A model generated the notes under the pieces. The model was not told where the DNA came from. It made no database searches and worked only from the letters and a program-made list of their open reading frames with translations. Shown one piece after another: positions 5,482 to 59,064 of a DNA stretch of 64,000 nucleotides. The first letter of the stretch is position 1; each line of letters opens with the position of its first letter. The stretch is from Sulfurimonas sp. (GTDB lineage: Bacteria; Campylobacterota; Campylobacteria; Campylobacterales; Sulfurimonadaceae), in the NCBI RefSeq assembly GCF_023228785.1, contig NZ_JALOAN010000010.1:7198-71197 (forward strand), written 5' to 3'. The position numbers and the translations under genes are program-made.

Positions 5482-6326
5482 TAAGAAGCTTTTAGGAGTG
5501 TTAGCATATCAGAGAGAGTTTTTTTAAGCTCATTTCTATTTACTATCATATCAATAGAACCCTTCTCAAGCAAAAACTCAGCTCTTTGAAAACCATCAGG
5601 AAGAGCTGAACCTATGGTTTGCTCTATTACTCTCTGTCCAGCAAAGCCTATCAAAGCACCAGGTTCTGCGATGATAATGTCTCCTAAAGTTGCAAATGAA
5701 GCACTCACTCCACCCATAGTTGGATCTGTTAGGACTGAGATATATGGGACATTGTGCCTAGCAAGTCTTGCAAGTGCAGCTGAAGTTTTACTCATTTGTA
5801 AAAGTGAGAATGTACTCTCTTGCATCCTTGCACCTCCACTAGCACTCAGTATTACTAAGCCTTGTCTTTTCTCAATAGAGCGGTTTACCGCTCTTACTAT
5901 TTTCTCACCCTCAACAGAGCCTAGAGATCCACCCATAAAAGCAAAGTCAAAGATTACGATTTGAGCTGCTACACCATTCATAACTATCTCGCCACTCACA
6001 ACCGAAGACTTTCTTCCAGTCTTAGCAAAGCCTTCCTCTATCCTTTTTGTATATGCTTTAGAGTCAACAAATTTTATAGGATCAACTGGATGAAGATTTG
6101 CATCGTATTCTACAAATGAGCCTTCATCTTCTAAGAGTTTTATTCTCTCATTTACGCCGATACGAAGATGAAAACCACACTTTGGACAGACATAGTTTTG
6201 ATTTTCTACCTCTTTGTAGTACATCAAAGAGTGACAAGATTTACACTTTACCCAGTGCGAAGATGATTCGTTTTTAATTACTTGTTTTTTGTTTGAGTTA
6301 AAAGAAAAAATGCTTAAGAGGTTCAA
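5481..6326 (-). CDS. accD: Acetyl-CoA carboxylase carboxyltransferase beta subunit
   Basis: TTG start; WVKCKSC...VCPKC zinc ribbon; [32 protein letters not shown]. Confidence 0.96.
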
Positions 6327-24287: not shown

Positions 24288-24364
<77 letters not shown>

Positions 24365-24382
24365 ATTTCTACATTTAAATGA

Positions 24383-24457
24383 TGGGGTATCGCCAAGCGG
24401 TAAGGCATCAGCTTTTGGTGCTGACATTCGGGGGTTCGAATCCCTCTACCCCATCCA
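24383..24457 (+). tRNA. tRNA-Gln (TTG), copy 1
   Basis: 75 nt; U1-A72, anticodon arm TCAGC-TTTTGGT-GCTGA, GTTCGAATC T-loop, CCA. Confidence 0.96.
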
Positions 24458-24480
24458 CAAACTCCTATTTATAGGCATAT

Positions 24481-24557
<77 letters not shown>

Positions 24558-27600: not shown

Positions 27601-27895
27601 TGAATGCTCTGAAAAATTATCAAATTGGATCCTGAATCAAGTTCAGGATGACGATTTTTTGGTTTAGCATGACGGTTTTTGGTTCAAGATGGCGGTTTTT
27701 TTGCTCAGGATGACACGTGCTGTCATTTCGTACTTAATAACGTGTTCCATCATTCCGTGCTTGACACACTCCATCATTCCGTGCTTGACACACTCCATCA
27801 TTCCGTGCTTGACACACTCCGTCATTCCGTGCTTGACACACTCCGTCATTCCGTGCTTGACACGGAATCTAGCTTATAAATTAATCAGAAAGTTC
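27601..27895. repeat. Composite CGTC-tagged REP doublet element, locus 1
   Basis: REP-B on minus strand (27627-27653); three degenerate 20-21 bp echoes of its arm; four 24-bp truncated REP-A units (27747-27842); full REP-A CGTCATTCCGTGCTTGACACGGAATCT ending 27870; flanks shared with locus 3. Confidence 0.9.
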
Positions 27896-50477: not shown

Positions 50478-50508
50478 AATGATAAACTACTTATAAATAA
50501 ACTCAAAG

Positions 50509-50641
50509 AGGCACTAGTGCCGAGGGCTTTCTGCCGAAGAAAACCAAGCGCGCACGACAGAGTACCCTTTGGGTATTAGCGTAGCCAAAGGGACTTTGTT
50601 CCTTTGGTGTGACAAAATAAATGAAGGTTTCTTTCATTTTA
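50509..50641 (+). repeat. Five-hairpin structured intergenic element (family D), copy 1; possible ncRNA or cis-element
   Basis: 70/76 identity with 57966.. over the first 76 nt, then a sequence-variable hairpin and a conserved AAATGAAGG..C(T/C)TTCATTT hairpin. Confidence 0.85.
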
Positions 50642-50665
50642 TAACATAAAATTAAGGATATTATT

Positions 50666-51265
50666 ATGGAATTAAAATATGTTGGTCCAAAGCCTATTAT
50701 CTCTCATACAGGTATAGAATTTGATAACAATAAAGAAGACAAATATGTCTACTTAAATATAGCAGTTCAACTTATAAAAGCACTTAACCATGAGTACTTT
50801 GAGGATAAAGTATATACTTATGAAGCCTCAACTAAAAGACTAGAAAAAGATGAGCTCTTTGATGAGTTAAAAAAAATATGTCCAAATATAAATACTCTTG
50901 TGGAAAAACAAAATCATGATATAGAAGAAGAGATAGAACATGATTTAAAAAGAGCCCAAGAAAATAGTGTACTAAGTGAAGAAAACAAAGAAGTTTTATA
51001 TAACAATATAAATATTATGCGCGATTATCTTATTCAAAGATCCATCAATAAAAGTGTTTACTATTGTGTTATATATGCACTAGCAGATATGCTAAAAAAA
51101 GATCATATCAACTATATAGTAGCTCCACTATTTCAAAAATTTGCTCATGTTCTTCACTCAGTCCAAGGAAGTCTAAAAAGACAAAAAACTCCAATAGAAA
51201 CTGCAGTAGATGTTTTTAAAAAAGATAATGGTCTTTTTGTAAAACTAAAAGTAATCAACAAGTAG
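50666..51265 (+). CDS. Hypothetical protein
   Basis: 199-aa ORF with AAGGA RBS; no motif I recognise. Confidence 0.75.
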   Translation: MELKYVGPKPIISHTGIEFDNNKEDKYVYLNIAVQLIKALNHEYFEDKVYTYEASTKRLEKDELFDELKKICPNINTLVEKQNHDIEEEIEHDLKRAQENSVLSEENKEVLYNNINIMRDYLIQRSINKSVYYCVIYALADMLKKDHINYIVAPLFQKFAHVLHSVQGSLKRQKTPIETAVDVFKKDNGLFVKLKVINK

Positions 51266-57221: not shown

Positions 57222-57464
57222 TGAATGCTCTGAACAATTGTTAAGTTGGATCCTGAATCAAGTTCAGGATGACGCGTCTTGTCGTTCCATGCGTGTCTTG
57301 TCATCCCATGTGTATCTTGTCATTCCGTGCATATCTTGTCATTCCGTGCGTATCTTATCATTCCGTGCATATCTTGTCATTCCATGTGTATCTTGTCATT
57401 CCCGTGCGTGTCCGTCATTCCGTGCTTGACACGGAATCTAGTTTATAAATTAATCAAAAAGCTC
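57222..57464. repeat. Composite CGTC-tagged REP doublet element, locus 3
   Basis: REP-B on minus (57248-57274); seven degenerate ~19-bp units of TCTTGTCATTCCGTGC; full REP-A 57413-57439; both flanks homologous to locus 1. Confidence 0.9.
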
Positions 57465-57546: not shown

Positions 57547-57963
57547 TTGGCAATCGTTTCAACAAAAGGTGCTTATGGTTTAACAGCCATGATAGTGCTT
57601 GCAAAAGAAGAAGATGGCAAGAAGTTGTTACAGATAAAAGATATAGCTAGCAAAGGGGATATTCCTCAAAACTATCTTGAGCAAATCTTAGTTCTTCTAA
57701 AAAAAGCCGCTTTGGTTGAGAGTGTTAGAGGATCTAACGGCGGTTATAGACTATCTAAACCTACAAGCGAAATAAGCGTGTTTGAAATACTAAACTCATT
57801 AGAGTGTTGTATGGCTCAAACTGACAACAAAAGCAACAACAACATGCTTGAGGCTTTTTGGCAAGATACACAAGAGAAAATTAAAGGGATATTTTCACTC
57901 TCTTTAAAAGAGTTAGAAGAGTTTTTAGAACAAGACTCTCAAAACATTATATACCACATATAA
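57547..57963 (+). CDS. Rrf2 family transcriptional regulator (CymR-like by context)
   Basis: TTG start after AAGGA; STKGAYGL, IP.NYLEQIL, LVESVRGSNGGYRL; upstream of cysK. Confidence 0.9.
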   Translation: MAIVSTKGAYGLTAMIVLAKEEDGKKLLQIKDIASKGDIPQNYLEQILVLLKKAALVESVRGSNGGYRLSKPTSEISVFEILNSLECCMAQTDNKSNNNMLEAFWQDTQEKIKGIFSLSLKELEEFLEQDSQNIIYHI

Positions 57964-57965
57964 AA

Positions 57966-58097
57966 AGGCACAATTGCCGAGGGCTTCCTGCCGAAGGAAA
58001 CCAAGCGCGCACGACGGAGTACCCTTGGGGTATTAGCGTAGATGGCGGGATTACTCCCGACATCGTAACAAATAAATGAAGGGTTCCCTTCATTTTA
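57966..58097 (+). repeat. Five-hairpin structured intergenic element (family D), copy 2
   Basis: Homologous to 50509..50641 with a compensatory T-A to C-G change in hairpin 2 and a fully re-sequenced hairpin 4. Confidence 0.85.
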
Positions 58098-58143
58098 CTA
58101 GGTACCCCTTGAGGGTGTGAAATAATATTAAGGAAATAGACTT

Positions 58144-59064
58144 ATGAAAATAGCACAAAATGTAACTGAGTTAATTGGAAATACTCCACTTGTAAAGATA
58201 AACAGTATCTCAAATGAGACAAATACAATCATTCTAGGTAAGTGTGAGTTTTTGAATCCTACTAGCTCTGTAAAAGATAGAATTGCTCTTGCTATGATAG
58301 ATGCAGGCATAGCTGATGGAAAGATAAATAAAGAGACTCTTATCATAGAACCAACAAGTGGAAACACTGGGATTGGTCTTGCAATGGTTTGTGCCTCAAA
58401 GGGTTTAAAACTAACTCTTACTATGCCAGAATCTATGAGCTTAGAGAGACGACAACTCCTTAGTGCTCTTGGTGCTAACATAGTTTTAACTCCAGCAGCA
58501 CTTGGGATGAAAGGTGCTATTGACAAAGCAGCAGAGCTCAATGAAGAGGACAAAAATAGTTTCATGCCTCAACAGTTCAACAACTCAGCAAATCCTGCTG
58601 TACATAAAAGCACTACTGCTCAAGAGATACTAAGAGATACAGATGGGAAGATTGATATCTTAGTAGCAGCAGTTGGAACTGGTGGCTCGTTAACTGGAAT
58701 AGGAGAAGCACTAAAAGAGAACAATCCTAACATAGAGATCATAGCAGTTGAGCCAACAAGCTCACCTGTTATTTCAGGAGGAAAAGCAGGACCTCACAAG
58801 ATCCAAGGTATCGGTGCTGGTTTTATTCCAAAGGTTTTAAATACAGAGATCATAAACGAAGTTATACAAGTAAGCGATGAAGATGCATTTGCTACTTCAA
58901 AAGCTTTAGCAAAAAATGATGGTCTTTTAGTTGGTATATCAGCCGGAGCAAATGCTCATGCTGCAAGACTTGTAGCAAGTAGAGAGCACAACAGAGGAAA
59001 AACTATAGTTACTATACTGTGTGATACGGGAGAGAGATATCTAAGTACTGCTCTGTACTCATAA
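58144..59064 (+). CDS. cysK: Cysteine synthase A
   Basis: IGNTPLV, NPTSSVKDR, EPTSGNTGIGLA, GTGGSLTG, HKIQGIGAG. Confidence 0.96.
   Translation: MKIAQNVTELIGNTPLVKINSISNETNTIILGKCEFLNPTSSVKDRIALAMIDAGIADGKINKETLIIEPTSGNTGIGLAMVCASKGLKLTLTMPESMSLERRQLLSALGANIVLTPAALGMKGAIDKAAELNEEDKNSFMPQQFNNSANPAVHKSTTAQEILRDTDGKIDILVAAVGTGGSLTGIGEALKENNPNIEIIAVEPTSSPVISGGKAGPHKIQGIGAGFIPKVLNTEIINEVIQVSDEDAFATSKALAKNDGLLVGISAGANAHAARLVASREHNRGKTIVTILCDTGERYLSTALYS

Follow-up and report, generated by a model that had tools for sequence, protein, structure and literature searches.

In Streptococcus pneumoniae, the BOX elements (boxA-boxB(n)-boxC) are assembled from short hairpin boxes with optional or repeated middle modules; they are intergenic, often lie just 5' of genes, are co-transcribed, and have no transposase of their own. 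In the Bacillus cereus group, bcr1 is said to be a non-autonomous repeat, about 150 bp long, that is present at different sites in different strains and whose predicted RNA fold is reportedly backed by compensatory changes. Intervening sequences of the 23S rRNA (in helix 25/45) occur in Campylobacter, Helicobacter, and Salmonella and have, to our knowledge, not been described as copies of a genome-wide repeat. Although REP, BOX, and bcr1 are known repeats, what they do and how they spread is for the most part unsolved. In a host closer to the one studied here, Sulfurovum sp. NBC37-1, a survey of tagged repeats lists GTAG repeats along with CGTC repeats (Di Nocera et al. 2013, PMC3733652).

The element described here lies in a window of 64,000 nucleotides, that is, the whole stretch of DNA that was analyzed, which belongs to a 2.28-Mb Sulfurimonas assembly (the window's own genome, G000). 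The original prediction was a dispersed 133-bp element of five hairpins, H1 to H5, with copy A at 50509-50641 and copy B at 57966-58097, both on the + strand, and this is indeed where the two copies are found. Pairwise alignment of their 5' parts yields 6 mismatches over 76 nt (70/76 identical), and H1 to H5 are all legible in both copies as had been described; H2 shows the T-A to C-G swap, and the two H4 hairpins are unrelated in sequence. Copy A is located between ychF and a gene encoding a 199-aa protein, while copy B has the rrf2 stop codon immediately 5' and cysK 3', gene identities that are backed by Pfam. The 199-aa protein (50666-51265) has no Pfam match of its own (best E 0.028), and at least seven congeners retain its gene immediately 3' of ychF. 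The parts of the two copies are given below, the core matches being those of R1, a covariance model of the core with 88 positions and 21 pairs.

50504-50616, + strand: copy A core, R1 match of 50.9 bits (G000:C77:57701-57813)
50510-50521, + strand: copy A H1, downstream of an A-rich lead
50524-50527, + strand: copy A GRGC
50528-50542, + strand: copy A H2, with loop GCCGA at 50533-50537; followed by AAGCG and the H3 insert
50551-50576, + strand: copy A optional insert CGCACGACAGA and H3 hairpin GTACCC-TTT-GGGTAT, within the GUUA loop of the core mini-hairpin
50577-50584, + strand: copy A TAGCGTAG
50584-50608, + strand: copy A H4, followed by GUGAC
50619-50639, + strand: copy A H5 AAATGAAGG-TTT-CTTTCATTT, an AU-rich hairpin with a T-run 3'
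50631-50668, + strand: copy A H6 region CTTTCATTTTAT / AACATAAAATTAAGG, in which the H5 3' arm is predicted by ViennaRNA to pair with the Shine-Dalgarno (SD) sequence
50654-50658, + strand: copy A SD sequence AAGGA, with the downstream ATG at 50666
57961-58072, + strand: copy B core, R1 match of 45.6 bits (G000:C77:65158-65269)
57967-57978, + strand: copy B H1
57985-57999, + strand: copy B H2
58008-58033, + strand: copy B H3 insert
58034-58041, + strand: copy B TAGCGTAG
58041-58065, + strand: copy B H4, followed by CGUAAC
58074-58095, + strand: copy B H5 AAATGAAGGG-TT-CCCTTCATTT
58101-58119, + strand: copy B additional H3-type mini-hairpin GGTACCCCTTGAGGGTGTG, located 3' of H5 and 5' of the SD sequence
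58130-58134, + strand: copy B SD sequence AAGGA, with the cysK-side ATG at 58144

The two copies are part of a family. Copy A, compared by BLAST with the G000 assembly, matches about 19 places, and R1 detects 21 strong and 7 weak core copies, so that copies A and B stand far beyond chance and belong to a family of about 21-28 rather than being a two-copy curiosity. Nearly all copies in G000 display the same succession of an A-rich lead, H1, GRGC, H2, AAC-NN-AGYG-UUA-RCG-UAG, H4, and CGU. The 26-nt insert with H3 is present in only 7 strong copies and missing from 14 of the 21, while H4 comes in a few unrelated sequence types and H5 in two. Instead of the fixed 133-bp unit of five hairpins that had been proposed, the element is thus a mosaic consisting of an 88-nt core, an optional H3, and a genus-specific H5. 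The linker AAGCGCGCACGAC, which had been considered invariant, dissolves in the same way, one half being core (AAGCG) and the other the optional insert (CGCACGAC..., then H3) that most copies do not have.

The modules are combined in different ways. Besides cores with or without H3, there are cores in which H4 is deleted (C82 and L076), an H4 part on its own (C60:20806 and C33), an H5 on its own (C29:55298), and tandem cores (C50, L196, L076, and L155). The family as a whole forms tandem and head-to-head dimers as well as H4 subfamilies, most copies being singletons. The H3 mini-hairpin is found inside the H4 loop at three loci (L112, L161, and L162), inside the GUUA loop of the core in G000, and, as GTACC(C/T)CTTGAGGGTG, directly before TGAAATAAAATTAAGGA and the start codon of three G000 genes, where it separates H5 from the ribosome-binding site (window 58101-58119; G000:C18:33619; and G000:C36, minus strand, near 720). 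That this module occurs in loops or in a linker is what would be expected if the fold were under selection. We also observed a variant family, in which a short hairpin with AGCTTYAGTGSC..AGCGGCYTAGCGWAG replaces H1/H2 ahead of an H4-type hairpin (G000:C33:5368-5440 and 5728-5800, C9:1-29, C36:29395-29469, and C19:16881-16960); several of its copies adjoin tRNA genes or sit on what, to judge by its short length, is probably the rRNA contig.

The core of about 88 nt comprises H1, H2 (a 5-bp hairpin), a 2-bp GUUA mini-hairpin, and H4, with GTAG before it and CGU after it; both H1 and H4 are variable in sequence. The idea that structure rather than sequence is conserved, first drawn from the two window copies, is strengthened by strong covariation over 109-131 copies from many genomes. 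In 109 distinct copies, 91.1% of the proposed-pair cells are standard, compared to 70.0% in shuffles, with the proviso that H4 subfamilies are shared by non-orthologous copies and independent compensatory events are therefore fewer than cells. The observed covariation was reached by none of 500 shuffles of these copies, and pairing falls to 42-53% when the partners are slid by one to three columns. In the same set, paired cells amount to 99.3% in H2, 93.8% in H4, and 98.6% in the mini-hairpin, while the RGC:GCY pairing described below reaches 99.1%, with 40 double changes.

A mutual-information scan of all column pairs recovers H1, H2, and H4 together with two further pairings, to which the alignment, unlike to these three helices, had not been fitted. 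The first, R22:Y32, is G-C in 79 copies and A-U in 50, with a single exception, while the second, Y46:R51, is C-G in 76 copies, U-A in 40, U-G in 6, and A-U in 3. Since the H2 search pattern let R and Y vary independently at the newly paired columns, and since unlinked control columns show no association, these pairings are not an artifact of retrieval or of simple lineage linkage. R22:Y32 and two nearly unvarying flanking pairs join GRGC to the first three bases of the H2 loop, which, judging from the covariation, would form either an H-type pseudoknot without connecting loops or two mutually exclusive hairpins. One other candidate for H1, a DNA operator such as CIRCE, was ruled out because the H1 sequence varies yet stays paired.

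The core is present in 42 of 151 Campylobacterales genomes searched with R1, in 1 to at least 29 copies each. In three families the carriers account for 10/11, 9/11, and 7/10 genomes, while five families of the order, with 10-11 genomes each, have zero core matches with the same model. Genomes of the window's genus have between 0 and 22 copies, and 27-29 are reached in another genus. An exact-pattern scan with a degenerate H2 pattern, using one genome per species, returned more than 119 loci, and those fitting the full model are in Sulfurimonas, Sulfuricurvum, Sulfurovum, and Sulfurospirillum records, in other records of Campylobacterales/Epsilonproteobacteria, and in a few MAGs titled "Proteobacteria," "Pseudomonadota," or "uncultured bacterium." Matches to the H2 pattern in Lachnospiraceae, Clostridia, Kuenenia, and Oscillospiraceae come without the rest of the element. 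As anticipated for an undescribed element, no Rfam 15 family matches it: the whole window gives only 4 tRNAs at the gathering threshold, and copy A, with E up to 10, gives only chance-level matches of at most 17 bits. No account of the element was found in a full-text literature search. Three tRNA genes of the window are clustered within about 270 nt (24288-24554), the first and third with identical Rfam alignments.

Which strand folds can be read from the wobble pairs. G·U outnumbers A·C by 183 to 53 overall and by 128 to 15 in H4 alone, in which one position is either G·U or A-U in almost all copies. With G·U far above A·C, the + strand is the folding strand, be it as RNA or as ssDNA. The original prediction had assigned a + strand preference to H4, which holds, and a − strand preference to H2, which does not, the counts there being 11 G·U and 8 A·C. 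In G000, all 19 copies with a determinable downstream gene share its orientation, and they are mostly 50-57 nt ahead of the start codon. Across taxa, there are 49 sense-tandem, 16 antisense-tandem, 12 convergent, and 8 divergent contexts, and a full census of two complete Sulfurospirillum-type genomes counts 22 sense and 12 antisense among 34 tandem copies. Orientation is biased towards transcription, and it is strict in Sulfurimonas only. The G·U excess and this gene-following orientation favor a fold of the sense strand, as far as sequence can tell, and with 22/34 sense copies in the two Sulfurospirillum-type genomes any RNA-level role cannot be universal.

The genes downstream have little in common. 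In G000 they include flgE, nifU, bcp, hisA, fabG, secG, dnaK, rpoZ, rplS, hom, metG, rpmA, cysK, and others, to which other genomes add rplL, rplK, eno, adk, gyrB, fabI, luxS, and more; 71 of 102 downstream proteins are singletons. While the core is a conserved, covarying structure as an aptamer would be, the copies always occupy a sense 5' leader in G000 only and not across taxa, and they do not precede genes of one pathway or ligand. Since the downstream genes are functionally unrelated, a metabolite riboswitch is strongly disfavored, and a riboswitch-like role is unlikely all the more since 16 of 65 tandem-context copies are antisense. The element resembles REP/BIME, BOX, and bcr1 more than it resembles a riboswitch.

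Orthologous loci in related genomes reveal the recent history of copies A and B. At the rrf2-cysK junction, G000 has one core and its closest relative, G194 (CysK 91% identical), has two in tandem, while the junction is empty in G181, G002, and G186, with a stop-to-start gap of 13-22 nt. The ychF junction has a full copy in G000 and a 5'-truncated copy in G194, and it is empty in G184, G021, G018, G196, and G023, in which the same downstream gene is retained. The empty sites at both junctions directly support the notion of a non-autonomous element that had been put forward. As one gain in the G000/G194 ancestor is more parsimonious than several losses, copies A and B are young insertions. Comparison of filled and empty sites shows AT-rich, SD-like similarity at both junctions, with no clean target duplication. 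Copies come and go at given junctions on the time scale of species divergence; by this pattern of presence and absence the element would be mobile, repeated loss being the alternative. Older copies are found at the same genes in several species (dnaK in five; nifU, rplL, and hisA in three each), and their H1, H2, and H4 all differ between species yet still pair.

A different kind of site is seen in two complete Sulfurovaceae-type genomes, in which a head-to-head core pair lies inside the 23S rRNA gene (L256 2089-2259 in G027 and L255 2189-2358 in G122; also L141 3936-4105). The insert, of about 170-220 nt, is located some 560-760 nt from the 5' end of the gene, which we take to be the region of the known helix-25 intervening sequences, and the LSU match that includes the pair is 3146 nt long vs. 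2925 for the model. This head-to-head pair looks like a helix-25-type intervening sequence built from the element.

The reading that best accounts for these observations, to which we give a probability of about 0.6, is that copies A and B would be members of a dispersed, non-coding, modular structured repeat, similar to REP/BIME, BOX, or bcr1, that is co-transcribed into mRNA leaders. The element would land in short spacers that separate a stop codon from the following ribosome-binding site, it would be transcribed together with the flanking genes, and its sense RNA would fold, as suggested by the tolerance of G·U and not of A·C. In leader or intercistronic RNA, the stable core could then act as a barrier or handle, either by keeping exonucleases away from neighboring cistrons or by serving as the binding site of a conserved host factor, while the H5/H6 pair described below would set the openness of the ribosome-binding site. 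Selection might keep the fold through a benefit to the host message (stability, processing, or start-site access) or through the element's own spread. Two features count against a repeat: unpaired bases conserved across families and pseudoknot-like covariation, which is not usual in REP-type elements, fit a dedicated functional RNA better.

Such a dedicated RNA, which we consider unlikely, would be cis-regulatory: its pseudoknotted core would respond to a global signal, as an aptamer or as a protein-binding site, H5/H6 would be the expression platform, and translation or termination of many housekeeping genes would be under its control. It would explain why unpaired bases between variable helices are conserved and why RGC:GCY and the GUUA hairpin covary, as well as the strictly sense placement of copies in G000 at a fixed distance from start codons, the retention across species of the copies before dnaK, nifU, rplL, and hisA, and the many highly expressed genes among the targets. 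The 3' modules, which have a part in the preferred reading too, could provide the switch. The 3' arm of H5 (CCCUU or CCUUC, plus U/A) can pair with the H5 5' arm or with an AU-rich stretch ending in AAGGA, and this second pairing, H6, is retained in both H5 types via matching changes; the two hairpins are predicted to be mutually exclusive, with H6 hiding the ribosome-binding site. In ViennaRNA folds, an intact H5 goes with an open site and a weak H5 with a closed one; the pairing probability of the SD sequence is 0.42-0.47 in copy A and averages 0.44 over copies, the extremes being 0.02 and 1.00. However, H5 is a Sulfurimonas-specific module, and neither H5 nor H6 is found outside the genus. 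The downstream genes, moreover, share no common pathway, both window copies are recent and their junctions work without them in congeners, and copy number varies from 0 to 22 in one genus. The antisense copies in tandem contexts, 12 copies in convergent spacers, and the pairs inside 23S rRNA also fit poorly with control of a downstream gene.

Other observations concern the 3' modules. Five Sulfurospirillum-type loci (L081, L084, L168, L176, and L179) have their own conserved hairpin, AGAGTTCT-NNN-AGAACTCT, 3' of the core in place of H5, so that the 3' add-on modules are lineage-specific. A terminator consensus scan did not call H5 in copy A and called it in copy B on the minus strand only; with 2-3 G-C pairs in its stems, H5 would at best be a weak terminator, and the scan does not support a plain one. 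Two further candidates were discarded. A leader-peptide ORF in H5 of copy A (MKVSFIL) has no SD sequence and is not shared between the copies, and GGCAC-N2-TTGC, judged by eye, has the wrong spacing for a sigma-54 promoter.

It is rather improbable that the element is the remnant of a transposon moving as ssDNA (REP/RAYT or IS200/IS605), in which a Y1 (HUH) transposase would cleave the GTAG-tagged H4, everything else being cargo. The GTAG directly 5' of H4 and the 3-nt CGU tail recall the GTAG-tagged REPs of PMC3733652, head-to-head dimers exist, and G·T pairs are tolerated in ssDNA hairpins too. Furthermore, G000 encodes a RAYT of 177 aa (G000:C77:176-709, − strand, in L049, about 6.5 kb left of the window), which scores 90.3 bits with NF047646 (cut-off 80) and has the HLH and YxxNPV motifs. 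However, this gene is flanked by other hairpins, for example CTCGTTCCCAA...TTGGGAA and CTCCCAAGCACAGCATGGGAG, and the co-occurring HUH gene that had been considered is not found beside any copy. Among 15 Y1/RAYT genes in 15 genomes, including that of G000, none has a core copy within about 2 kb, and the 58 kb surrounding them contain no R1 match at E up to 1. A Y1 homologue is present in 25 of 42 element-bearing genomes vs. 43 of 109 element-free ones, and mean copy number is 11.4 with a homologue vs. 4.4 without, both comparisons being made among relatives, which are non-independent samples. The 17 remaining bearers, three of them with 10 copies each, do without a Y1 homologue. A canonical REP-RAYT system was rejected, since presence does not appear to track Y1 and no copy is near the 15 Y1 genes, while a past role of a RAYT in the history of the element is conceivable. 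Two side observations may be added here: the RAYT-flanking hairpins recur beside several element copies, outside the core, and, at 27601-27895 and 57222-57464 of the window, CGTC-tagged palindromes (CGTCATTCCGTGCTTGACACGGAAT, GGATCCTGAATCAAGTTCAGGATGACG) form arrays that include degenerate tandem half-units and fit the CGTC REP superfamily of PMC3733652.

No other vehicle was found. There is no element match in 72,556 plasmids and 50,697 phages, and all copies are chromosomal, beside housekeeping genes. The resemblance to the CS-6 motif of rolling-circle origins, noted earlier as a hint of an ssDNA role, loses its weight with this lack of plasmid or phage carriers, TAGCG(T) belonging to the mini-hairpin that covaries and to the GTAG tag ahead of H4. 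The 8-mer TAGCGTAG occurs 69 times vs. about 46 expected from base composition, an excess of about 1.5-fold. Paired copies enclose a polysaccharide-deacetylase-like gene (a by-eye judgment from sequence) and glnB-amtB, with no transposase or autonomous parent between them. Nor is the element built as a MITE, the ends (A-rich lead and H1 on one side, H4-CGU/H5 on the other) not being inverted copies of each other. In 5 complete genomes, with the origin set at dnaA, 49 copies are on the leading and 36 on the lagging strand. This bias is weak, and it could not be told apart from the effect of transcription, sense to antisense copies being 18:7 in leading-strand genes and 4:5 in lagging-strand genes. 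The weak bias, and the fact that most copies are singletons, also speak against a transposon remnant.

A small self-cleaving ribozyme, or another catalytic or processing RNA riding a repeat and trimming leaders and intercistronic RNA, is very improbable, since the case for it is one of analogy (several small ribozyme classes are multi-copy and gene-independent, with a conserved core and loop-to-flank pairing, as this element appears to be, and no Rfam family matches), and against it no known ribozyme core motif was recognized and antisense copies are common outside the genus.

It is doubtful, but would be of wider consequence, that the 88-nt core represents a new class of structured RNA, with a pseudoknotted three-helix fold and invariant junction bases, that is bound by a conserved host factor, catalytic, or ligand-sensing. 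If true, this new class would be spread through the housekeeping-gene leaders and intercistronic spacers of Sulfurimonadaceae, Sulfurovaceae, and Sulfurospirillaceae, and a mobile element would double as a genome-wide module of post-transcriptional control.

Under our preferred reading of a dispersed structured repeat, the element is an unusually clean case. Its core has invariant unpaired bases and loop-to-flank pairing over several families, its old copies lie at the same genes with every helix rewritten, the sites of its young copies are intact and empty in sister species, and no Y1 transposase travels with it. It is also a concrete RNA, whose fold, partners, and cleavage can be probed in cultivable sulfur-oxidizing and organohalide-respiring Campylobacterales, and its covariance model could be submitted to Rfam. 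For annotation, it accounts for many of the "empty" spacers of 100-200 nt before housekeeping genes in carrier genomes, and it may be what a 23S rRNA intervening sequence arose from.

How, then, does the element compare with known systems? Like BOX, it is modular and intergenic and has optional middle modules, while its sequence and host are unrelated to those of BOX, which is found in one species group whereas the element core is found in several families. The likeness to bcr1 lies in a similar size for a non-autonomous repeat, in presence/absence polymorphism, and in compensatory changes in the fold; however, bcr1 is said to have a TTTAT target duplication and to be restricted to one group, while no clean duplication is seen here. 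The inserts of G027 and G122 are like the 23S intervening sequences in place but differ from them in being copies of a dispersed repeat. The likeness to the GTAG-tagged REP/BIME of PMC3733652 is broad: these too are intergenic, multi-copy hairpins with GTAG on the 5' side and a short tail, their stems fall into subfamilies that differ by complementary changes and include G·T pairs, and they occur as singletons, tandems, and head-to-head dimers in mosaic association with other repeats. It is by tag and tail that H4 looks like them. As expected of such a tag, (C)GTAG stands 5' of H4 in at least 85% of 131 copies, and the last G of GTAG is able to pair with the C in the CGU tail. In contrast to a REP, which is a single palindrome of 20-40 nt, the unit here is 88 nt long and has three helices, a mini-hairpin, and pseudoknot-like pairing; its unpaired bases are conserved across bacterial families, the RAYT gene is not flanked by it, and no RAYT flanks any copy. 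What is unusual in the element, when set against the known repeats, is the extent of the conserved unit, its invariant unpaired bases, and its loop-to-flank pairing.
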